Sequence record: MT782071.1
Source: Escherichia phage JN02
DNA: 64,000 nucleotides
Direction: 5' to 3' (one strand)
Part shown: positions 19,399-64,000 of the stretch, piece by piece
Layout: each line of letters begins with the position of its first letter
How positions within the stretch are numbered: position 1 is the first letter of the stretch
Notes under the pieces: model-generated
The model's database searches: none
Told to the model about the DNA's origin: nothing
What the model saw: only the letters and a program-made list of their open reading frames with translations
Position numbers and translations under genes: made by a program

Positions 19399-19405
19399 GA
19401 AAAAA

Positions 19406-19422
19406 GGGAGACGTTGTCTCCC
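19406..19422. terminator. terminator between gene 54 and the minus-strand early gene
   Basis: GGGAGAC-GUUG-UCUCCC hairpin with A-run before and T-run after. Confidence 0.7.
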
Positions 19423-19431
19423 TTTAGGGGT

Positions 19432-21871: not shown

Positions 21872-21911
21872 AGTGTTTTCCTTTTAGTAATAATTTATAT
21901 TTATGCCAAAA

Positions 21912-21927
21912 AGAGCCCGAAGGCTCT
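21912..21927 (-). terminator. intrinsic terminator upstream of alt
   Basis: minus strand AGAGCC-UUCG-GGCUCU followed by UUUUU. Confidence 0.7.
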
Positions 21928-22115
21928 TAATCTACAATCGGGAGCAAAGTACGATAAACTTCAAAATTAGGGCCTTTTTCGTACTTATCAAAATTGTCCA
22001 TAAAAATATGATAGGAATCGTTATTAGGAAAATCTAATACAATTTGGGAACAAGAGGTGGAAACATTGCGTCCATCTTTATTAGCGACAACTACTGTTTC
22101 TAAATAAGCTTTCAT
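21927..22115 (-). CDS. hypothetical protein
   Basis: 62 aa from ATG at 22115, one nt after gene 30 stop; longer ORF-track start overlaps gene 30. Confidence 0.5.
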   Translation of the reverse strand: MKAYLETVVVANKDGRNVSTSCSQIVLDFPNNDSYHIFMDNFDKYEKGPNFEVYRTLLPIVD

Positions 22116-23885: not shown

Positions 23886-24701
23886 TTAACAATTTATAGA
23901 CCAAGTCCATTTGGACGAATCTAAAGGAAAGTTTTGAATCGTCCACCATGGCTGCATATCGGTTGGTCCTTGGGTTCGCCAGGTATACGGATTCGACGGA
24001 GCACCAATTTGATTAGGCCATGCGCCTGGACTTGTTGTACCAGATTCTTTAAGCAAATCTGCCAATCGTTTTAAAAGGTCTTCACGATCTGAATCTGAAT
24101 TATGCTCTGGTGGAACCAAACGAGATTCAATATCATCCCACGTGTGTACACGTTGTGCAGTACGAGGAATGGCATCACGTTCACCACGAGCCAACCAATA
24201 AATCGGTACATTAAGAATTTCTGCTGCATGGTCACAGTGATGAGCTAAATCGTCAACGTAACAAATCACGTTATATTTTGTTTTAGCTAGTTCGAATAAT
24301 TGTTCCTTTGAAGAATCATGTCCACACATCATTACTTCAGAAAAGGCGCCTGGGAACAAAGCATTCAAATTAAATTGTCTATTCAATCGAGCATCAATTG
24401 AATCACCTAGCGCCGTCACGGCTACAAAATTATAGTTTTCTTTTAGTTTATTGATAACTCGAAGAGCATCCGAATAAGGCGCTAAGTAACGAATAAAATC
24501 AGAGCGATTATATTTTTCTATTAATTGTTTACCGAGATTATCGTCGGTATTGAATAGTTTACCAGGAGAAATAAATTTTTCGTCCTGAATCATTTTTAAA
24601 ATATGTTCTAATGGAAGATTATATTTTTGGGCAAAATAAGGAAGTCCAGATTGCCAGCTTAAACATACACCATCAATGTCAGTCAAAATAGTAGGCTTCA
24701 T
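23886..24701 (-). CDS. HAD-superfamily phosphatase-like protein (30.2 position)
   Basis: 271 aa; N-terminal DIDGV motif and later VDD motif typical of HAD hydrolases. Confidence 0.7.
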   Translation of the reverse strand: MKPTILTDIDGVCLSWQSGLPYFAQKYNLPLEHILKMIQDEKFISPGKLFNTDDNLGKQLIEKYNRSDFIRYLAPYSDALRVINKLKENYNFVAVTALGDSIDARLNRQFNLNALFPGAFSEVMMCGHDSSKEQLFELAKTKYNVICYVDDLAHHCDHAAEILNVPIYWLARGERDAIPRTAQRVHTWDDIESRLVPPEHNSDSDREDLLKRLADLLKESGTTSPGAWPNQIGAPSNPYTWRTQGPTDMQPWWTIQNFPLDSSKWTWSINC

Positions 24702-25156
24702 AAAGAGTCTCTTAATAGGTTTAACACATCAATAAATTCAGCTTCAGTTAATATTGTATCATCTTTTGTTAGGTGGCTGGCCATGCTGTGCTTCAAAATT
24801 TTTCCTTTCGAAGCCTGTAATGCATCACGAAAGCCTTTGTTTTGGATCGCGGCTTCAAAATATGCATTTGTATATAATTCTTTCCATGCTTCAGAGTATC
24901 TTGAAAATGGAATTCCAAGCCAGAAAAGCGTCCCACGGTCCTGAGCTCTTGCATAAGACCTTCCAGCTTGCTGGGCGGCCAATCCGGACATCCCAAATAT
25001 ACGTTTTTGTTGTTCAACATTTTTCACCTTACACCCTTGGAGAAATCCTTCAAGTCCTCCGAATTGAATACCATCCATAACAAAAGGCCATTGGGCGAAA
25101 TTACTTAATGCGCATGACGGCCATTTGAAATTGCTTCTTATTTCTAATTCACACAT
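24698..25156 (-). CDS. NADAR (YbiA/DUF1768)-like protein (30.3 position)
   Basis: 152 aa from ATG at 25156 (track used GTG at 25165); SNFA-WP-DG signature resembling YbiA-type NADAR domains. Confidence 0.65.
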   Translation of the reverse strand: MCELEIRSNFKWPSCALSNFAQWPFVMDGIQFGGLEGFLQGCKVKNVEQQKRIFGMSGLAAQQAGRSYARAQDRGTLFWLGIPFSRYSEAWKELYTNAYFEAAIQNKGFRDALQASKGKILKHSMASHLTKDDTILTEAEFIDVLNLLRDSL

Positions 25157-25367
25157 CTTTAACACTTATAATTTCAACATCAGCCCAATGACCGTATCCA
25201 GGTATACGGTCTTCGATAGATAAATTTCCGTCATTTTTAGGCATTTTAATTGACGTAACGTATGGTTCTAAACGGTTTTCTGCATAATATGGAAAAACGT
25301 CTGTTACACGATAAGTAACTTCGATCATTTCCGTACCAAACAATTTCTGGATTAATTTATTCAACAT
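25149..25367 (-). CDS. hypothetical protein
   Basis: 72 aa, ATG start, coupled to downstream gene. Confidence 0.55.
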   Translation of the reverse strand: MLNKLIQKLFGTEMIEVTYRVTDVFPYYAENRLEPYVTSIKMPKNDGNLSIEDRIPGYGHWADVEIISVKDV

Positions 25368-25554
25368 GTTTCAACCCTTTAATAGGAGATAACTCTTTAC
25401 CCATACGTATGTCAGAAGTCCAATCAACCCATTGAACAGCATACGCTTCATTGATAATTCCAGCGGCGGTTTTAAATTCAGGGAGAACTTTAAAAATCAC
25501 CCCAGGAATTCCAACACCTTTTAATTGGACTGTTTGTGCTATTAAAAATTTCAT
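25357..25554 (-). CDS. hypothetical protein
   Basis: 65 aa, ATG start downstream of an early-type promoter. Confidence 0.55.
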   Translation of the reverse strand: MKFLIAQTVQLKGVGIPGVIFKVLPEFKTAAGIINEAYAVQWVDWTSDIRMGKELSPIKGLKHVE

Positions 25555-25578
25555 ATTTTTCCACTTACTAAAGAAATC

Positions 25579-25609
25579 ATTATACTCTAATCCGTCCTTG
25601 GATGTAAAC
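25579..25609 (-). promoter_or_regulatory. early promoter (weaker match)
   Basis: GTTTAC and TATAAT with a 17-19 nt spacer upstream of ORF 25357..25554. Confidence 0.45.
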
Positions 25610-26223
25610 TACTTAACGAAATTAATTTCTACCGGATGAACAACAGGTTGAGCAGTGATATATTGAGTAATTGCTTTCATGACTAGAGCTTCAGAACCAG
25701 GATTTTTCTCAACGAATTCACGTGCTTGGTTATGGGCTTCGAGTTCACTTAGTAAACCACTTCGTTGGCATCCACGGTCTTGAGTACCTTGTTCAGATAA
25801 AAAGACGACGATGTATTTTTCATCGTCATACGGTTTAGACGGTTGAGCAAATGTTCCTTTACTTCCAAAAGGAGAGTTATGACGCCACATCACGCCGTGA
25901 GGAGTTTCAACCTTCGTATATTCATGCGGGCCATTTTTCTTAGTTTCTTGATGTGGAACTTCGTAGACCTTAGGGTTAGGACATTCAATAAAATGCTCAT
26001 CTAAATCGGTCGAGAATATTAAAGTAAAACAATGTCTGAATTTACCAACACCTGCCTGATAAATTTTACCTTCAGAAGTTCTAATTTCACAAACTGAGCC
26101 GGCATCAGTAACTTCTAAAACTTCAAAAGGCTCAATAAGGTCATATGAGAACATGTTTTTAAGGCGTGGAGTAATATCCCCATTTTTAAAATTCATTTTA
26201 TAAAAAGTATTAACTTTAAACAT
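25609..26223 (-). CDS. hypothetical protein (30.6 position)
   Basis: 204 aa from internal ATG (MFKVNTF...) with SD GAGGAAA; the stem-loop at 26235-26252 would lie inside the longer track ORF. Confidence 0.6.
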   Translation of the reverse strand: MFKVNTFYKMNFKNGDITPRLKNMFSYDLIEPFEVLEVTDAGSVCEIRTSEGKIYQAGVGKFRHCFTLIFSTDLDEHFIECPNPKVYEVPHQETKKNGPHEYTKVETPHGVMWRHNSPFGSKGTFAQPSKPYDDEKYIVVFLSEQGTQDRGCQRSGLLSELEAHNQAREFVEKNPGSEALVMKAITQYITAQPVVHPVEINFVK

Positions 26224-26234
26224 AATTTCCTCAG

Positions 26235-26252
26235 TGGGAGCCGAAGCTCCCA
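26235..26252 (-). other. stem-loop immediately 5' of an RBS
   Basis: minus strand UGGGAGC-UUCG-GCUCCCA, then SD GAGGAAA and ATG at 26223. Confidence 0.5.
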
Positions 26253-26624: not shown

Positions 26625-26664
26625 TTTATTCTCCAGATGTTTAAGTTGTTTGTTGGTACAGGTC

Positions 26665-26693
26665 TATAATAACATAACCTGTACCAAAGTAAA
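26665..26693 (-). promoter_or_regulatory. early promoter with inverted repeat around the -10
   Basis: GTTTAC, 17 nt, TATTAT; 9-bp inverted repeat GGTACAGGT/ACCTGTACC flanks the -10. Confidence 0.6.
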
Positions 26694-26698
26694 CTGTT

Positions 26699-27067: not shown

Positions 27068-27109
27068 TTTGTTCTCCAGGTGGTTTTATTGATTAGATGG
27101 TACAAGTCT

Positions 27110-27138
27110 ATAGTAACACATCCTACAGGAGAGTAAAC
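27110..27138 (-). promoter_or_regulatory. early promoter
   Basis: GTTTAC, 17 nt, TACTAT upstream of ORF 26699..27067. Confidence 0.6.
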
Positions 27139-27174
27139 ATCTTTTTAAACTTTTTCTGCCCTAAACGCACAAAA

Positions 27175-27192
27175 GGGAGACCGAAGTCTCCC
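27175..27192 (-). terminator. intrinsic terminator after the 59-aa basic ORF
   Basis: minus strand GGGAGAC-UUCG-GUCUCCC followed by UUUUG. Confidence 0.75.
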
Positions 27193-27197
27193 TAAAA

Positions 27198-27377
27198 TTA
27201 TGCAGCAACCTTTCCAAAACGAGAAGCATCATCTCGAAGAACTGCACGTGCTCTGCGCATGATCTTCTCAACTGTTTGATTAATACGAGAGTTCGACCCA
27301 CGCTTGTATCCAGCGCGTTTAGAGGTACCATCAACTTTCTTTTCAACTGCTTTCTTTGCTTTAGCTTGTTTTGCCAT
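27198..27377 (-). CDS. small Lys/Arg-rich protein
   Basis: 59 aa hand-translated (MAKQAKAKKAVEKK...); ends 6 nt before a terminator hairpin; replaces track ORF 27161..27346. Confidence 0.45.
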   Translation of the reverse strand: MAKQAKAKKAVEKKVDGTSKRAGYKRGSNSRINQTVEKIMRRARAVLRDDASRFGKVAA

Positions 27378-30632: not shown

Positions 30633-30660
30633 TTCTATTTCCTCATTTGTTGGTAGAGTT

Positions 30661-30690
30661 ATAGTATCACAACTCCACCGTGTTGTAAAC
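30661..30690 (-). promoter_or_regulatory. early promoter
   Basis: GTTTAC, 18 nt, TACTAT, then leader CAACAAATGAGGAAA and ATG at 30632. Confidence 0.65.
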
Positions 30691-32758: not shown

Positions 32759-32786
32759 TTAGATTTCCTCAATTATCCATAGGAGC

Positions 32787-32816
32787 ATTATACTCTGCTC
32801 CCGAGAGTTTGTAAAC
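32787..32816 (-). promoter_or_regulatory. early promoter
   Basis: GTTTAC, 18 nt, TATAAT; flanking inverted repeat GGAGC/GCTCC. Confidence 0.6.
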
Positions 32817-33321: not shown

Positions 33322-33674
33322 TCTGAGAGCTTCCTGAGGTCTTCTGCGAAGGAATCGAAGGACCTGTTGATTTGTTTTTCGACCAATCCTGGTTTACTTG
33401 CCACCACGTTCTTCTTCTTCGAATCCTTACGGAGCTTTTCATTTTCGGCCTTAAGTTGGTCAACTAAAACACGGTTCTTATAAGTCATTTCTTCGATTGA
33501 CTGATATTGAGCCTTGAAGTCGTCTAATACTTTAGCATTGTTTTTAGCAGTCTCTTTGACAGAAGCTAATTCAGTATTCAACGAATCAACTTTGTTGTTT
33601 AAGACAACTATTGTTACCGTAGAAACTAGAGCAAAAGCTGCTACTATAACATAAATCGGATTTACTTTAAGCAT
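33318..33674 (-). CDS. inner-membrane spanin (i-spanin; T4 pseT.3 type)
   Basis: 118 aa; N-terminal TM helix then coiled-coil-like K/E-rich region. Confidence 0.75.
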   Translation of the reverse strand: MLKVNPIYVIVAAFALVSTVTIVVLNNKVDSLNTELASVKETAKNNAKVLDDFKAQYQSIEEMTYKNRVLVDQLKAENEKLRKDSKKKNVVASKPGLVEKQINRSFDSFAEDLRKLSE

Positions 33675-35375: not shown

Positions 35376-35405
35376 ATTGTACCACAATCCTTGTGGTATG
35401 TAAAC
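35376..35405 (-). promoter_or_regulatory. early promoter (rnlA)
   Basis: GTTTAC, 17 nt, GTACAAT; spacer contains palindrome CCACAAGGATTGTGG. Confidence 0.55.
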
Positions 35406-37073: not shown

Positions 37074-39329
37074 TTAAAGCTTACAAGCAGAACAATCTTC
37101 AGCTTTAGGTGTTTCTAATTCATAGTCATCTGTACCAGACCCATCACGAGTGTTATGATAGTAGAGGTTTTTTCCACCAAAGTACCAGAAGTAAAGTAGA
37201 TCGTCAAGCATTACTGACATTGGCACTTTACCTTTCTCAAATACTGCAGGGTCATAGTAAGTATTAGCAGAAGCAGATTGGCACACCCATTTCAACATGA
37301 TAGCAACTTGGGTCAAATAAGGTTTATTACCTTTCTTAGCAAGTTTCCACGCGTAGTCGTAAAGACCCATGTTATGTTCTATATTAGGAACAACCTGACG
37401 GAAGTTGCCTTCTTTAGATTCTTTAATACTCACTGGACCACGCGGCGGTTCAATCCCGTTTGTAGAGTTTGATACTTGACTGCTTGACTCACAAGGCATG
37501 AGTGCAGACAACGTTGAGTTACGAATTCCATGTTCTTTGAGTTCAGCTCGAAGTTCTTCCCAATCACATACGTAGTTCGGGGCTGCGATTTGGTCAATCT
37601 TTTTATTGTACCAGTCGATAGGTAATTCGCCTCTAGACCATTTAGTGTCTGAATAATACTCGCAACATCCTTTTTCTTTGGCGAGTTTGATTGAAGCTTT
37701 GATAAGGCCATATTGCAATCTCTCAAACAATTCATGAGTCAAATCGTTAGCGTCTTCATATGAAGCGAAGTTAGAAGCTAACCATGCAGCATAGTTCGTA
37801 ACACCAACACCAAGATTACGACGCTTTTTGGCTTTTAAAGCTTCTGGAACCGGATAATCTTGATAGTCTAACAGATTATCAAGTGCACGTACTTGTACTT
37901 CAGCAAGTTCATTAATTTTATCTTGGTCTTGCCAATCAAATTTATCTAATACAAAAGCAGATAATGTGCATAAACCAATTTCAGCATCAGGACCATTCAC
38001 ATCATTAGTTGGAATAGCGATTTCACAACATAAGTTACTCTGACGAATTGGAGCTTTTTCACGAATAAACGGAGTGTAGTTATTCGTGTTATCAACAAAC
38101 TGTGGATAAATTCGAGCAGTACCAGAGCGTTCAGTCATGAACAATTCAAAGAGTTCTAGTGCTTTGATTCTTTTCTTTCTGATTGTTGGGTCTTTTTCAG
38201 CTTTCTCATAAAGCTCACGGAATTTATCTTGATCTTCAAAGAACGAGTAATATAGTTCGCCTGACATTTCGTGAGGGCTAAATAAAGTAATATAATCATT
38301 TTTGCCAAGGCGTTCCATCATGAGGTCATTAATCTGAATTCCATAGTCCATATGTCGAATACGGTTTTCATCCACGCCTTTGTTATTTTTCAGAACTAAT
38401 AGGTTCTCTACTTCTAAGTGCCACATCGGATAATACGCTGTAGCAGCACCACCACGAATACCACCTTGAGAACAAGATTTTACTGCAGTTTGGAAATGTT
38501 TCCAGAATGGAATAACACCCGTATGTCGAACTTCACCCATACCGATCTTAGAACCTTCTGCACGAAGCATACCAACGTTGATACCAATACCAGCTCGTTT
38601 AGAAATATATTCAATAATTGATGCTGAAGTTTTGTTAATAGATTTTAACGAATCACCGGCTTCAATAACTACACAACTAGAGAACTGGCGAGTTGGAGTA
38701 CGAGCACCTGCCATAATTGGGGTTGGCAATGAAACTTGATGAGTAGAAACGGCATCATAAAAACGAATAATATGTTTCAAACGGTCATGAGTTTCGTTTT
38801 GGTGTAAGGCCATGCCAATAGCCATGATAGCAAACTGGGGAGTTTCATAAATCTTCCCAGTTGTTTTATCTTTAACTAGATATTTTTCTTTAAGCTGCAT
38901 AGCACCAGCATAAGTCAGGTCAAAGTCTCGTTCATGTTTAATCTGTGAATCGAGATAAATGATTTCTTCTGCTGAATATTGAGACAACAGCTCAGGGTCA
39001 TATTTGCCTTCATTAACACAATAAGAAATATGGTCGATAAAAGCAGGCGGTTCAAACTGCCCATATACATCTTTACGAAGTGCAAACATTAGCCCTTTGG
39101 CGGCGACATACTGATAATCAGGTTCTTCGACAGAAATCGAGTTAGCTGCAACTTTAATACAAATCTTCTGGATATCTTTGGTGCTCATCCCGTCAACAAG
39201 ATGGGTCTTAATTTCTTCGTACAATTCATATGGGTCAATTTGTGTTCCTTCACATTGCCAGGTCAGAACTTGGATAATTTTCTGTGCATCAAAATTTTGG
39301 GATACGCCACTGCTCTTAGTTACTTGCAT
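37074..39329 (-). CDS. nrdA: ribonucleotide reductase large subunit
   Basis: 751 aa; class Ia RNR alpha subunit; T4 synteny. Confidence 0.95.
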   Translation of the reverse strand: MQVTKSSGVSQNFDAQKIIQVLTWQCEGTQIDPYELYEEIKTHLVDGMSTKDIQKICIKVAANSISVEEPDYQYVAAKGLMFALRKDVYGQFEPPAFIDHISYCVNEGKYDPELLSQYSAEEIIYLDSQIKHERDFDLTYAGAMQLKEKYLVKDKTTGKIYETPQFAIMAIGMALHQNETHDRLKHIIRFYDAVSTHQVSLPTPIMAGARTPTRQFSSCVVIEAGDSLKSINKTSASIIEYISKRAGIGINVGMLRAEGSKIGMGEVRHTGVIPFWKHFQTAVKSCSQGGIRGGAATAYYPMWHLEVENLLVLKNNKGVDENRIRHMDYGIQINDLMMERLGKNDYITLFSPHEMSGELYYSFFEDQDKFRELYEKAEKDPTIRKKRIKALELFELFMTERSGTARIYPQFVDNTNNYTPFIREKAPIRQSNLCCEIAIPTNDVNGPDAEIGLCTLSAFVLDKFDWQDQDKINELAEVQVRALDNLLDYQDYPVPEALKAKKRRNLGVGVTNYAAWLASNFASYEDANDLTHELFERLQYGLIKASIKLAKEKGCCEYYSDTKWSRGELPIDWYNKKIDQIAAPNYVCDWEELRAELKEHGIRNSTLSALMPCESSSQVSNSTNGIEPPRGPVSIKESKEGNFRQVVPNIEHNMGLYDYAWKLAKKGNKPYLTQVAIMLKWVCQSASANTYYDPAVFEKGKVPMSVMLDDLLYFWYFGGKNLYYHNTRDGSGTDDYELETPKAEDCSACKL

Positions 39330-41576: not shown

Positions 41577-41608
41577 TTTATTCTCCTTCACTTTTATTTG
41601 ATAGGGCT

Positions 41609-41638
41609 ACTATAACATAACCCTATCTTGTTATAAAC
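41609..41638 (-). promoter_or_regulatory. early promoter with inverted repeat around the -10
   Basis: GTTTAT, 18 nt, TATAGT; inverted repeat ATAGGG/CCCTAT. Confidence 0.55.
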
Positions 41639-42030
41639 TACTTTTTAAAAGTTTTTTGCAAAAGTTCGATGATTTCGTCGACGTTGGTTTCATCTACGAT
41701 ACAATGGATTTTTGTTACACCTAAAGTTACACCTTCGTTAGTAGGTTGAGGCTTTACTAAATCTACCTCAGTAAAGTATTTGAACTCATCATAATAAATC
41801 TCAAAATAAGTTTCAATTTCACCACCGGCAGAACATACAGTACCGTCTTCCATAGTTACACTTACTACGTTTGGCGTATCGCTGTCATAATCAGGTTCCA
41901 TTCCATTTACAACAAAACTAGGCCCATGGAGTTCAATCAATTTTAACATCTTAGCGTTATTGTGTGGTGCTTCTTGAACAAAGTCGTCTTTAAATAAAGG
42001 GTTAATGATATAAGATTTTCCGATTTTCAT
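41638..42030 (-). CDS. hypothetical protein (frd.2 position)
   Basis: 130 aa from internal ATG with SD GAGGAAA; longer track ORF overlaps upstream gene. Confidence 0.55.
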   Translation of the reverse strand: MKIGKSYIINPLFKDDFVQEAPHNNAKMLKLIELHGPSFVVNGMEPDYDSDTPNVVSVTMEDGTVCSAGGEIETYFEIYYDEFKYFTEVDLVKPQPTNEGVTLGVTKIHCIVDETNVDEIIELLQKTFKK

Positions 42031-42040
42031 TTTGATTTCC

Positions 42041-42292
42041 TCATTTGTTGATGTGTTGTAATAAAGATTCTGCAAACGTCTCATATGATTCCAGGTGTTC
42101 TTCTTTAATGCGAACTGCATGATTATCACCCGAAGAATAGAACATCTGTACGATAAGAGCTTCGTAATCAGACGAAATACATGCTACGTTTTCCGGCTTC
42201 AGGCATTCATTGTATGTCGCAAGTGGGTCAGTGAAAGCTGCAACGTTTTTGCTACCGCAGTAATCCATACTTCTTTGAATAATAAAAATCAT
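42041..42292 (-). CDS. hypothetical protein (frd.3 position)
   Basis: 83 aa; SD GAGGAAA; early promoter upstream. Confidence 0.55.
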   Translation of the reverse strand: MIFIIQRSMDYCGSKNVAAFTDPLATYNECLKPENVACISSDYEALIVQMFYSSGDNHAVRIKEEHLESYETFAESLLQHINK

Positions 42293-42321
42293 TTTATTTT
42301 CCTCTCATTTGTTGATAAGTC

Positions 42322-42350
42322 TATAGTATCATGTTTAAAGGAAAAGTAAA
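42322..42350 (-). promoter_or_regulatory. early promoter
   Basis: GTTTAC, 17 nt, TACTAT, then CAACAAATGAGAGGAAAATAAA and ATG at 42292. Confidence 0.65.
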
Positions 42351-42382
42351 CAACTTTTTTGGCAATTTACAGATACTCAAAA

Positions 42383-42400
42383 GGGAGACCGAAGTCTCCC
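42383..42400 (-). terminator. intrinsic terminator after gene 32
   Basis: minus strand GGGAGAC-UUCG-GUCUCCC followed by UUUUG. Confidence 0.8.
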
Positions 42401-42406
42401 GATTTA

Positions 42407-43309
42407 TTATAGACCAGCTAACAGGTCATCTAGGTCGCCATCATCAGAGGATGAGGTAGAGCTCATGAAGTCATCTTCAGTTTTTGCAGAACTAAAGGCT
42501 TCCATGTCTTTATCAAAATCGTCGAGGTCAGAAGCAACTTTATCTGCAACAGAAGCTGCGGCAGCTGCTGCACCGCCCAGAGCGGCAGTACCAAGAACCT
42601 TAGCGAAAGATTCATTTAATTTTTCAAAGGATTTGAACTGGTCTTTAGCCGTCAAAGTAGTAAGGTCTACCATCTGGTCATATAGTTCTTTCTGGAATGC
42701 TTCGTCATTAATACGAGGAATTTCAGATTGACCCAAGAATTTAGATTCGTCATAGTTGCTAAAACCGGAAACCTGCTTAGCTTTCAGAACGAAGTTAGCA
42801 CCTTCAAACGGGCAAGTAACATCAACCGGAGTTTCACCCATTTCGGTATCAACTGCAATCATTGCATTGATTTTGTCCCAAATCTTTTTACCGAAACGAT
42901 ATTTAAATACTTTACCTTCGTTATCTGGAGCTTGAGGATCTTTAACAACCAGAATATTAGCCCAATAAGAAGTTTTACGTTTCAGTTGAGAATATTCAGT
43001 TTTGTTGGTATTGTACAGGTCATTTTTGATAATGTACTGACATACAGGACAAGAGTCATAATCACCATGTGTAGAAGAGCAATTTTCAATATACCATTTA
43101 CCATTTTTCTTGAAACCGTGGTTAACAAGAATTGCAAATGGTAGTGCATCATCAGTTTTTGCTGGCAAGAAACGAATTACCGCTTGACCATTACCAGATG
43201 CATCTAGCTTCAGCTTCCATTCGCCTTTATCTTCTGAAGAGAAACCTTTGTTACCATTCAGTTTAGCCATTTGAGCAGCGAGGTCAGCAGTAGATTTACG
43301 TTTAAACAT
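42407..43309 (-). CDS. 32: single-stranded DNA-binding protein gp32
   Basis: 300 aa; zinc-binding region and acidic C-terminal tail; matches T4 gp32. Confidence 0.97.
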
Positions 43310-58121: not shown

Positions 58122-58754
58122 TCACAGTACGTTAGTTACAAGGGTAATGATTTCTTTGGACACATTAGGGAAGTCGATGTAGGTATATTTACCACCGATC
58201 TTAATCTTAACATCATTTTCAAGAGAAGTAAACAGCTTTGATTCAGTTTCTGTCATGTTGTATGCAAAGATTCTAAGAGCGCCATCTCGACGAATTTCGA
58301 TCTGACGAATACCTAGAACTCGTTTTGCAAATCGAACTTCCAAGTTACTACGGTTTTCACCAATTTCTTTAACTTCAACTTTATCTTTAATATTTTCAAA
58401 AACAAAGTTTGCTAGTTCATGCATTTCAGGAGTAACTCCACGTGCTTTTCTGGTGTTACGTTTCTGAAGAAGTTCCGGAGCATTTTCTTGAGCAAATAGG
58501 TCTGCAGCTTTTTGGATAATATCCATTGCTTCACCTGTTGCTATAAGTCCATCACCAGATTTTTCGACTAAACCTTTCTTAATCAATACACCAATGTTAG
58601 AGTTAACAACCGATGCATTGTATTCCGCTTCCAGAGCTTCACGGACATTGGCAGCAGTGGTGAAGTTGTTCTTAATGATATAAACCATTATTGCAGCAGT
58701 TTTTTCATTCAGAGCGTTTTCAGAAGCTTTGATGATGTAAGTAACTTTAGACAT
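58122..58754 (-). CDS. motA: MotA middle-transcription activator
   Basis: 210 aa; N-terminal domain matches T4 MotA. Confidence 0.85.
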   Translation of the reverse strand: MSKVTYIIKASENALNEKTAAIMVYIIKNNFTTAANVREALEAEYNASVVNSNIGVLIKKGLVEKSGDGLIATGEAMDIIQKAADLFAQENAPELLQKRNTRKARGVTPEMHELANFVFENIKDKVEVKEIGENRSNLEVRFAKRVLGIRQIEIRRDGALRIFAYNMTETESKLFTSLENDVKIKIGGKYTYIDFPNVSKEIITLVTNVL

Positions 58755-58820
58755 TTTATTTCTCCAAATTAGTATTTGTTTTGATAGGTCTATAATATCA
58801 TGTTTGAAGCAAAAGTAAAC
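58747..58820 (-). repeat. promoter-leader direct repeat, copy A (motA)
   Basis: about 75 bp nearly identical to 59066-59141, covering -35, -10, RBS and the ATG-TCT-AAA start. Confidence 0.75.
58792..58820 (-). promoter_or_regulatory. early promoter (motA)
   Basis: GTTTAC, 17 nt, TATTAT; part of direct repeat copy A. Confidence 0.65.
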
Positions 58821-58857
58821 TTTATTTTGGGCTCTTTTTCAAAAGCCCTGGTAAAAT

Positions 58858-59073
58858 TTACAAACTCATTTCTTTAATAAGGCTAATAAGTTTTGCCTTT
58901 TTAGAACGAAGCTTTTCTAAATGATGTCCATTTGAACCGCGAACCACTAAAGAATTGATTTCAACTTCTAAGAAATTTAATTCTTCAACAAGTGCTTTAC
59001 GTGGAGCATTCATACCAGGTTTAACTTTACCGAAACGAGTAGTTGTGTTTTGGGTTAATTTCATTTTAGACAT
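58858..59073 (-). CDS. small basic protein
   Basis: 71 aa, K/R-rich; promoter, SD and first codons duplicated from motA. Confidence 0.5.
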   Translation of the reverse strand: MSKMKLTQNTTTRFGKVKPGMNAPRKALVEELNFLEVEINSLVVRGSNGHHLEKLRSKKAKLISLIKEMSL

Positions 59074-59141
59074 TTTATTTCTCCAATTTGGTTGTTTTGT
59101 TTTGATAGGTCTATACTATCATGTTTGAAGCAAAAGTAAAC
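59066..59141 (-). repeat. promoter-leader direct repeat, copy B (71-aa ORF)
   Basis: near-identical to copy A. Confidence 0.75.
59113..59141 (-). promoter_or_regulatory. early promoter (71-aa basic ORF)
   Basis: GTTTAC, 17 nt, TAGTAT; part of direct repeat copy B. Confidence 0.65.
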
Positions 59142-59167
59142 TGTTTTGTGAGAAAAAATGCACAAAA

Positions 59168-59183
59168 GGGAGCCGAAGCTCCC
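59168..59183 (-). terminator. intrinsic terminator after gene 52
   Basis: minus strand GGGAGC-UUCG-GCUCCC followed by a U-rich tract. Confidence 0.75.
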
Positions 59184-59259
59184 TAATCATGTTTGTCCAA
59201 CCAATACAGCCAAATCACTAGTGCAGCTATTGCACCGAGAAATCCTAAGGCCAGGGCAC

Positions 59260-61375: not shown

Positions 61376-61419
61376 GCTAATTTCCTCAATTGATTAATGT
61401 TTTTGTAATCCATGAGAGC

Positions 61420-61449
61420 ATTATACTCTGCTCTCAAGAGTTTGTACAA
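61420..61449 (-). promoter_or_regulatory. early promoter (ndd), variant -35
   Basis: TTGTAC-type -35, TATAAT -10; flanking inverted repeat GAGAGC/GCTCTC. Confidence 0.5.
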
Positions 61450-61652: not shown

Positions 61653-61680
61653 TTTGTGTTCCTCGTGTTTCAGTAGGACT

Positions 61681-61710
61681 ACTATACCATAATCCTACCT
61701 TGATGTAAAC
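61681..61710 (-). promoter_or_regulatory. early promoter with inverted repeat around the -10
   Basis: GTTTAC, 18 nt, TATAGT; inverted repeat GTAGGA/TCCTAC. Confidence 0.6.
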
Positions 61711-62163: not shown

Positions 62164-62189
62164 GATGTTATCCTCTTTTAGATAGGACT

Positions 62190-62219
62190 ACTATATCATA
62201 ATCCTACTTAGTTGTAAAC
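62190..62219 (-). promoter_or_regulatory. early promoter with inverted repeat around the -10
   Basis: GTTTAC, 18 nt, TATAGT; inverted repeat TAGGA/TCCTA. Confidence 0.6.
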
Positions 62220-63031: not shown

Positions 63032-63047
63032 GGGGACCGAAGTCCCC
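63032..63047 (-). terminator. intrinsic terminator after rIIB
   Basis: minus strand GGGGAC-UUCG-GUCCCC followed by UUUUUCUUU. Confidence 0.75.
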
Positions 63048-63052
63048 AATTA

Positions 63053-64000
63053 TTATTCTGCAAATAATTCAGTAACGTCTGAAATTACTTCATAACGACA
63101 AGTACGCATCTTAGCATCACCATAGTCAACTGGGATAGATACAACATCACGTGGATGAACTTTAACTTTCACAACTTTATCTGAGCTTGAACCAAAGTGG
63201 CGAATATAAGATTTAGCACAAACATGTAGACCGCGAGAACAGGTTTGAGTATCATCGTCGTTAACTCGAGTACGAGGCATTGAAACAACTTTACCTGGGG
63301 AGTTATCAAATGTGCCACTATAGCAATCTAAATAGTCTTTACGAACTACTTTCCATGCATAGAAATACCCGTCTTCAGTGATTTCAATATCATTTGCAAC
63401 CAAGAAGTCGAATAAACGTTGTACAGCTTTTTCGCTTGGGTTTTCTAACAGGTTTTCAAGGAACGGCAGATAGAATTTAAAGTCTTCACCTTTTTCCATG
63501 GAATCAATAATACGATTAACCAGTCCTGAACGAATTTCTATACCTTGATAAAATAAACTACCACCTTCAATAGTAACATTACCGTCAACAAACTTACTAA
63601 TAGCTTTCTTGATGTTAATAAGTTCGACAGCTTTACTAAGGTTTCCTGCGACCAGATTAGCTTTAATTTCTTCAAAATTTGCATGACTTGATGGAGTCGC
63701 ATTGTATGCTACGCGTCCTTCAATAATTGAAATAAATTTAGATGACGCGTTCCATACGATTTCAGGACGATGTCCGCCGATAATAGGTTCATCATTTTCT
63801 GGAACTTCTTCGATTACATAAGAGGCATCGTTTGCTTCAGGGACAACGCCTTCTGCTTTAAAATTCTTAACAATCTTACGAAGAGTATCTGTTGAAATGT
63901 CGAAGTAATCGGCAATTTCTTTACGGGTCCATTTGCCTGATTCAACCAGGCCGTAAGCTTCTAACTGTTCTTCTTGGGACAAGCATTTGATATTGTACAT
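63053..64000 (-). CDS. rIIB: rIIB protein
   Basis: 315 aa; matches remembered T4 rIIB N-terminus (MYNIKCL...); ATG sits at the window edge. Confidence 0.85.
   Translation of the reverse strand: MYNIKCLSQEEQLEAYGLVESGKWTRKEIADYFDISTDTLRKIVKNFKAEGVVPEANDASYVIEEVPENDEPIIGGHRPEIVWNASSKFISIIEGRVAYNATPSSHANFEEIKANLVAGNLSKAVELINIKKAISKFVDGNVTIEGGSLFYQGIEIRSGLVNRIIDSMEKGEDFKFYLPFLENLLENPSEKAVQRLFDFLVANDIEITEDGYFYAWKVVRKDYLDCYSGTFDNSPGKVVSMPRTRVNDDDTQTCSRGLHVCAKSYIRHFGSSSDKVVKVKVHPRDVVSIPVDYGDAKMRTCRYEVISDVTELFAE

Follow-up and report, generated by a model that had tools for sequence, protein, structure and literature searches.

The DNA analysed here, called the window below, is the whole 64,000-nt stretch of Escherichia phage JN02 (record MT782071.1). 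The phage is a T4-type myovirus of the RB69 group (Mosigvirus) with 97% identity over 4 kb to Shigella phage SSE1 and many relatives. The promoters considered in this work lie in its minus-strand early region, between alt and rIIB, as placed by the annotated relatives Shf125875, T4, QL01, ESh27 and VR25. Early promoters of this region consist of GTTTAC, a spacer of 17 or 18 nt and TAnnnT with a TGn extension, and a Shine-Dalgarno sequence and an ATG follow 24-42 nt downstream of the -10. The pattern GTTTAC-N16-19-TANTAT has 12 exact matches in the window, all of them on the minus strand, compared to 0.23 expected, in agreement with the promoter pattern described in a sequence-only reading of the window. 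The same reading had listed six promoters at which an inverted repeat brackets the -10. All six repeats are present at the positions given, and in each of them the -10 hexamer lies in the loop or in the loop-proximal part of the stem. A seventh hairpin, absent from that list, was found at the cd.2 promoter. The genes downstream of the seven hairpin promoters are 30.7, cd.2, an RB69ORF231c-like ORF, frd.1, ndd, ndd.1 and an RB69ORF270c-like ORF.

All seven hairpins are on the minus strand. The stem-loop of the 30.7 promoter (26653-26687) is composed of TTGGTACAGGT, a 13-nt loop and ACCTGTACCAA, with the -10 TATTAT at 26666-26671 and the -35 GTTTAC at 26689-26694, and has a folding energy of -19.5 kcal/mol in a 61-nt fold (z = -4.45). 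At the cd.2 promoter (30652-30679), GGTGGAGTTGTG and TATAACTCTACC form 12 base pairs, including three G.U, around the loop AUAC (-10 TACTAT at 30661-30666, -35 at 30685-30690; -16.0 kcal/mol, z = -3.6), and the orthologous cd.3/cd.2 early promoter of T4 has the same fold at -16.3 kcal/mol. The RB69ORF231c-like promoter carries a module that we denote group B (32781-32802; GGGAGCA, GAGUAUAA, TGCTCCT), in which GGAGCA and TGCTCC are the arms of the previously listed repeat; its -10 TATAAT is at 32787-32792 and its -35 at 32811-32816. The frd.1 stem-loop (41600-41627) pairs GATAGGGTTAT with ATAGTAGCCCTATC across a loop and contains the inverted repeat GATAGGG/CCCTATC, with the -10 TATAGT at 41609-41614 and the -35 GTTTAT at 41633-41638 (-16.3 kcal/mol, z = -5.4). 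The ndd promoter (61409-61439) also has a group B module, with an upper helix of TGAGAGCA and TGCTCTCA (61413-61436) above a short lower helix UCU:GGA, the -10 TATAAT at 61420-61425 and the -35 TTGTAC at 61444-61449. At ndd.1 (61672-61699) the strands are GGTAGGATTAT and ATAGTAGTCCTACT, separated by a loop, with the inverted repeat GGTAGGA/TCCTAC(T), the -10 TATAGT at 61681-61686 and the -35 at 61705-61710. The weakest hairpin is that of the RB69ORF270c-like promoter (62182-62207; GTAGGATTAT, loop, GTAGTCCTAT; inverted repeat TAGGA/TCCTA; -10 TATAGT at 62190-62195, -35 at 62214-62219), with -10.9 kcal/mol and z = -1.8. Counting G.U pairs, the RNA stems of the seven hairpins have 8-15 bp and energies of -10.9 to -19.5 kcal/mol, with individual z values of -1.8 to -5.4. 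Further hairpins at 35381, 34198 and 19760 lie in the promoter spacer and not around the -10. The 30.8 promoter (27090-27140, minus) has a 3' arm, ACTTGTACC, near-identical to that of the neighbouring 30.7 promoter and an unrelated 5' arm (CCTGTAGGA); it resembles a 'half' cassette, of the kind termed degraded PeSLs in Comeau 2014.

A core TTATGNTATAGTAG had been attributed to four of these promoters. It is exact at three of them (41607, 61679 and 62188), and the copy at 26664 has two mismatches. If G.U pairs are counted, the core TTATGnTATAGTAG belongs to the stem, with UUAU pairing with GUAG. The fourth exact copy in the window, TTATGTTATAGTAG at 33641, is not a member of the set, being located in coding sequence with neither arms nor a GTTTAC box. 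This copy (33641-33654, minus) lies inside the start of pseT.3, preceded by the MotA-box-like ACATGCTTAAAG and with no inverted repeat, and may be a middle promoter. The leader CAACAAATGAGGAAA, which had been described as conserved at the same promoters, did not hold up: it is exact only at 30638 and 42036, and neither belongs to the six listed promoters. The copy at 30638 follows the cd.2 hairpin promoter and the one at 42036 is the frd.2 leader; we ascribe the second exact copy to an ORF insertion flanked by leader repeats (42010-42360).

Each hairpin occupies a short intergenic space of 57-76 nt, in which the elements have a fixed order. The upstream stop codon comes first; the promoter spacer then contains the 5' arm, and the loop contains the extended -10 and the -10. 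The discriminator and the first bases of the transcript hold the 3' arm, and they are followed by a leader rich in A, the Shine-Dalgarno sequence and the ATG. The upstream gene on the same strand ends 0-15 nt before the -35, and in many cases the stop codon and the -35 share bases (TAGTTTAC).

In order to compare orthologous promoters, we used the five annotated genomes together with IMG/VR loci found via Ndd, gp30.7 and Frd.1. The repeats turned out to be conserved or covarying, which is the comparison that the sequence-only reading had put forward as its check. The 30.7 arms do not vary among 9 distinct orthologues, which come from four genera and include T4, and the leader diverges. The sole change in the hairpin is a C to U that gives a G.U pair; the search for covariation among these 9 orthologues found conservation only, and the site is uninformative on pairing. 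At frd.1 the arms are ATAGGG/CCCTAT in this phage, AGGCTAT/ATAGCCT in Dhaka- and Gapriver-type phages and AGGGTA/TACCCT in T4-type phages, and CAGGGTAAT/ATTACCCTG and ATGGGGC/G(G)TCCCAT are found elsewhere. The frd.1 stems were tabulated individually; their offset from the -10 varies by lineage. Upstream of ndd, a hairpin is found at the same position in six genera with unrelated stem sequences. It overlaps an early promoter in this phage (GAGAGCA/TGCTCTC), in QL01 (CGAGAATC/GGTTCTCG) and in VR25 (GGGGTCA/TGACCCC), and the combination of hairpin and early promoter extends over Mosigvirus, Dhakavirus and Gaprivervirus. The hairpin is accompanied by a TGCTTTA MotA-box middle promoter in Serratia phage CHI14 (CGGACAT/ATGTCCG), by a TGCTTTA MotA-box promoter in Erwinia phage Cronus (TGGGCAT/ATGTCCA), and by no promoter in T4-group phages (GGCCGyrt.../...GCGGCC), among which the variants differ only by exchanges between G.U and Watson-Crick pairs. 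The hairpin at ndd is independent of promoter type.

The group B module was also searched for with the pattern AAACTCT-N8-GAGTATAAT, in which only the flank and the loop are fixed. There were 22 distinct copies in a T4-like promoter context, with 7-8 of 8 positions paired, and 37 chance matches in unrelated viral contigs, mostly with 1-3 of 8 paired. In an alignment of 16 sequences (A4), which provides the covariation evidence for the 32781-32802 hairpin, 98.4% of cells are paired, and 4 of the 8 pairs show compensatory double changes, one of them taking GC, CG, UA, GU and UG, although the sequences are phylogenetically related and neither pair changes nor G.U counts are independent events. 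The covariation score was 0.448 compared to 0.245 for shuffled alignments (0 of 500 as high), and slid controls were 36-54% paired. RNAalifold on the group B alignment returned the same helix plus two lower pairs. Cells that are not Watson-Crick are G.U, except for an outermost C.A in two sequences. According to Ripley's model, which was reportedly first described in T4, template-switch mutation in quasi-palindromes generates double changes in one step. Since such one-step changes are possible, covariation alone is no proof of selection for pairing.

We then considered whether the hairpins could be a matter of chance or an unselected by-product of the promoter consensus. The inner stem (UUAU/GUAG) is in part made of the extended -10 and -10 consensus, and the individual z values are modest for two of the seven hairpins (-1.8 and -2.5). 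However, the mean MFE over -20 to +20 of 19 curated early promoters was -8.03 kcal/mol, compared to -4.01 +/- 0.46 kcal/mol for column-permuted controls, which preserve the promoter consensus (0 of 1000 as low; z = -8.7), and -3.02 kcal/mol for within-sequence shuffles. Among 199 distinct T4-like early promoters from the fetched loci, 79 enclose the -10 in a stem with 6 or more Watson-Crick pairs, compared to 23.3 +/- 4.4 when their 3' halves are swapped. Moreover, the outer arms are outside the consensus elements and covary, and where the same flanking pattern occurs in unrelated viruses the arms are mostly unpaired. The permutation, covariation and unrelated-virus results thus already contradict an origin by chance, which has next to no probability. 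The embedded hairpins are real and under selection.

The position of the arms relative to the start site bears on the two mechanisms suggested earlier. In T4-type early promoters, the -10 is at -12 to -7 and the -35 at -36 to -31 (Nolan 2006). This places the 5' arm around -28 to -14 and the 3' arm around -6 to +5. A hairpin at the 5' end of the promoter's own transcript, which had been one suggestion, cannot form because the 5' arm is upstream of the start site; only read-through RNA has both arms. The other suggestion was an operator for a shared regulator, which could be of phage or host origin, for instance a factor that turns some of the early promoters off. A dyad with its centre at the -10 is how repressor sites are classically arranged, TAGGA/TCCTA is common to three promoters, and the 30.7 arms, GGTACAGG and CCTGTACC, are the ones that stay invariant in four genera beside a diverging leader. 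A palindromic operator would have the same half-site at all promoters, conserved in orthologues, but we found at least five unrelated arm sequences (GGTACAGGT, ATAGGG, GTAGGA, GAGAGCA and GGTGGAG differ completely), and orthologues substitute complementary pairs. The spacing between the arms varies from 4 to 14 nt, GGTACAGG is found in no other promoter of the window, and no candidate regulator is indicated. The compensatory substitutions with G.U intermediates in one module family are a base-pairing signature and do not point to a sequence-specific dimeric protein site. We regard a shared operator as very improbable. The 30.7 site is the exception, in that its invariant arms are, as far as covariation can tell, compatible with a protein site.

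The elements correspond to a known kind of structure. PeSLs (promoter-early stem-loops) were defined in RB49 and phi1, where they were proposed to have a dual role as attenuators and recombination sites, with recombination between neighbouring cassettes leading to circular DNA, or mini-circles, and weaker AT-rich analogues on T4 early promoters in T-even phages were already noted (Arbiol 2010, PMC2839356). They were later extended to PST/T4 and nt-1/KVP40, with middle-promoter versions included and the ndd region as an example (Comeau 2014, PMC4122927). RB69-type phages are mentioned in neither paper, and the only earlier account of dyad symmetry in T4 early promoters that our literature search turned up was the PeSL paper. 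Like PeSLs, the elements of the window join a stop codon, an AT-rich region, an early promoter, a stem-loop, a Shine-Dalgarno sequence and an ATG in an intergenic cassette. The promoter is strong, of the sigma-70 early type, intergenic and facing a downstream ORF; the upstream stop codon forms the 5' edge and the Shine-Dalgarno sequence and start codon the 3' edge; and a stable stem-loop is within or beside the promoter. Other shared traits are the location of the stem-loop between the -35 and -10 or over the -10 (PeSLs have five positional subclasses), G-T pairs in the stems and, probably, cassettes repeated in hyperplastic regions such as ndd-denB, with ORF indels flanked by cassette repeats. 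There are also differences. The PeSLs of RB49 have polyG/polyC stems on perfect TTGACA/TATAAT promoters, and those of PST/T4 are drawn just upstream of the promoter (AGNA-loop-TCNT), whereas the promoters here are GTTTAC/TAnTAT with mixed-sequence stems of 8-12 bp that include G.U, and the dominant strong class encloses the -10. In structure the elements qualify as PeSLs, a known kind of which this group of phages had no previous description.

We also asked at which level the pairing would take place. The sense-strand fold is more stable than the antisense fold in 7 of 7 hairpins. Among 54 distinct arm pairs there are 30 interior G.U compared to 11 A.C mismatches, an excess due in part to the sense-strand consensus of the extended -10 and the -10, which is rich in G and T. 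The covariation with G.U intermediates and the retention of the hairpin at one locus across six genera indicate that base pairing itself is selected, most simply in RNA. The strand asymmetry, the G.U bias and the retention of the ndd hairpin when the promoter is replaced or missing favour pairing in sense-strand RNA rather than a double-stranded protein site or a cruciform, in so far as this can be read from sequence. An element acting in DNA, as a hairpin, cruciform or target of a structure-specific protein, would need no RNA function and would be mainly a recombination site (as in PeSL mini-circle formation) or a modulator of promoter melting. In this phage, repeats of promoter modules do flank ORF indels, and the 3' arm occupies the discriminator, whose sequence affects open-complex stability. 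RB69 early promoters also show a preference for C at -3 to -1 (Nolan 2006). However, homologous recombination requires only repeated sequence and not self-complementarity, the ndd hairpin persists with another promoter class or none, and the mismatches are mostly G.U on the sense strand, that is, A.C on the opposite strand. In addition, loops of 8-14 nt with arms of 6-11 bp are poor substrates for cruciform extrusion. For these reasons we consider a purely DNA-level element unlikely.

The attenuator role was examined in relation to intrinsic terminators, with which the hairpins share their form, a nascent-RNA hairpin at the end of a cistron. An intrinsic terminator has a GC-rich stem, a short loop and a U-rich tract, whereas the hairpins here have weaker AU-/G.U-rich stems and larger loops, and all seven lack a U-tract, with 0-2 T among the 8 nt that come after the hairpin. 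The hairpin sites are not reported by the terminator scan, which does find GGGAGACTTCGGTCTCCC+TTTT-type terminators elsewhere in the window. An intrinsic terminator is hence rejected on the grounds of the absent U-tract, the AU-/G.U-rich stems and the large loops. The canonical terminators of the minus strand (63032-63069, 59159-59199, 42383-42427, 27166-27204, 21911-21948 and 19403-19425) are a uniform family with a GGGAGnCTTCGGnCTCCC-type stem, a UUCG tetraloop and a U-tract, several of them immediately upstream of an early promoter. A separate hairpin with a UUCG loop and no U-tract, GGGAGCTTCGGCTCCCA (26235-26252, minus), is followed by the Shine-Dalgarno sequence CTGAGGAAAT and edges an 858-nt segment (25358-26217) that is replaced by 294 nt in Shf125875 and 282 nt in ESh27.

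In the strict form of the attenuator proposal, which is that of the PeSL papers, the hairpins stop or strongly cut read-through and so insulate small transcription units. They are located where a terminator would be expected, and one RB49 stem-loop lowered lacZ expression about as much as rrnB T1. Promoters directly after a canonical terminator (27115, 42328 and 59118) have no embedded hairpin, which speaks for a terminator and also fits a hairpin that serves as the end of the upstream message where space is too short. The proposal has to contend with the missing U-rich tails and with stems and loops unlike those of the canonical terminators of the window, and also with the expression of T4 early genes from long read-through transcripts (Hinton review). 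Terminator activity of PeSLs was assayed for one RB49 element only, and it is not transferable to the hairpins here because no U-tract follows them. We therefore consider strict termination quite unlikely. The lack of U-tracts suggests that the published 'terminator' label needs re-examination.

A parallel in geometry is offered by the late promoters of T4 gene e (lysozyme) and related cases, which lie within the DNA for the 5' strand of a hairpin, such that read-through early RNA forms the hairpin and RNA from the embedded promoter is without the 5' arm (Uzan and Miller review, PMC3014915). In those cases the embedded promoter is late, and early translation is blocked by a 3' arm that sequesters the ribosome-binding site. 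Here, the 3' arm does not pair with the Shine-Dalgarno sequence or start codon; the predicted hairpins extend to about +1 to +5, and the Shine-Dalgarno sequence, which lies 15-40 nt downstream, is left unpaired. A second parallel is provided by REP elements, repeated extragenic palindromes between co-transcribed genes that have been proposed to block 3' exonucleases and are prone to recombination. The hairpins here are likewise repeated intercistronic palindromes, although REPs fall into conserved sequence families of their own and are not joined to promoters. Roles of REP elements are listed in PMC3733652. An Rfam scan of the whole window matched no family.

From the structure, its non-randomness, the covariation, the independence of promoter type and the indels flanked by module repeats, we infer that these are PeSL-type cassettes in which an RNA hairpin marks the 3' boundary of the upstream cistron and the repeated modules act as recombination patches, and we assign this reading a probability of roughly 60%. 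Host sigma-70 RNA polymerase initiating at the promoter would produce RNA without the 5' arm and therefore an unstructured leader. Polymerases arriving from upstream promoters would transcribe both arms, and a hairpin of 8-12 bp (-11 to -19 kcal/mol) would fold just past the upstream cistron. There it would be a boundary element for the upstream message, blocking 3'-to-5' exonucleases or serving as a processing stop, and possibly also a weak attenuator. The hairpin would be overlaid on the promoter because there is no room for the two elements side by side. The repeated modules near early regions would provide short homology patches, through which recombination could insert, delete and swap small ORFs. 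Our literature search for transcript 3'-end or TSS maps of T4-type phages found nothing usable. The result is an incremental refinement and no new system. It widens the PeSL concept to include RB69-type (Mosigvirus) phages and the 30.7 and cd.2 promoters of T4 itself, and what it adds to the original PeSL papers is covariation with G.U intermediates and a hairpin kept at one locus across six genera with any promoter. The sites are suited to tests of how T4-type phages delimit or stabilise small early messages in variable regions, and those at 30.7 and cd.2 are also present in T4, where genetics is easy.

A further feature was noticed next to the hairpins. GGAG or GGAU with an A-rich run is found 1-8 nt 3' of the group B hairpins and of the ndd hairpins in all six genera, with CTGGAGAATAAAC and CGGATTATAAA as examples; it lies at 61400-61412 and 32770-32780 in the window and in the loci L014, L020, L025, L061, L064 and L131, on the minus strand. 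The strong consensus for RegB cleavage is GGAGRAYARAA (Uzan and Miller review, PMC3014915). The motif resembles this consensus and can base-pair with an invariant CUCU located 5' of the hairpin. One could speculate that the promoter-embedded hairpin is an RNA switch that gives two transcripts of one gene different fates through RegB access, which we regard as a long shot. The hairpin of read-through RNA would act as a cap that protects the upstream cistron from 3' exonucleases, and the lower helix of group B (CUCU:GGAG) would hide the RegB-like motif. Local RNA, being without the 5' arm, would expose the motif at about +3 to +13 and might be cut by RegB near its 5' end. If this were true, early messages would decay in a transcript-specific manner set by where the promoter lies within the hairpin.

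With regard to the repeated modules, two clean ORF indels (58821-59065 and 42052-42290) were found, and both involve other promoter modules and not the -10-bracketing ones. In the first, two near-identical early promoter modules, GTTTACTTTTGCTTCAAACATGATAKTATAGACCTATCAAAACAAA (within 58740-59180, minus), flank a 71-aa ORF (58858-59073), and the repeated promoter module is 78-86 bp long. In ESh27 there is one module only and no 71-aa ORF (38666-38751 of locus L004), with alignments overlapping by 78-86 bp. This arrangement is a signature of recombination between direct repeats of promoter cassettes. In the second, two copies of a 26-bp leader repeat, ATCAACAAATGAG(A)GGAAA, enclose an 83-aa ORF (42041-42292, minus); this ORF is missing from Shf125875 and ESh27, where the promoter drives frd.2 directly. 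A near-identical copy of the ndd.1-type module is present in QL01 at a different locus, the cd region. Separately, a gene for a segH-like homing endonuclease lies between genes 59 and 33 of Shf125875 (24460-25143 of locus L001) and is missing from the window (about 44080), which is an ordinary mobile-endonuclease polymorphism.
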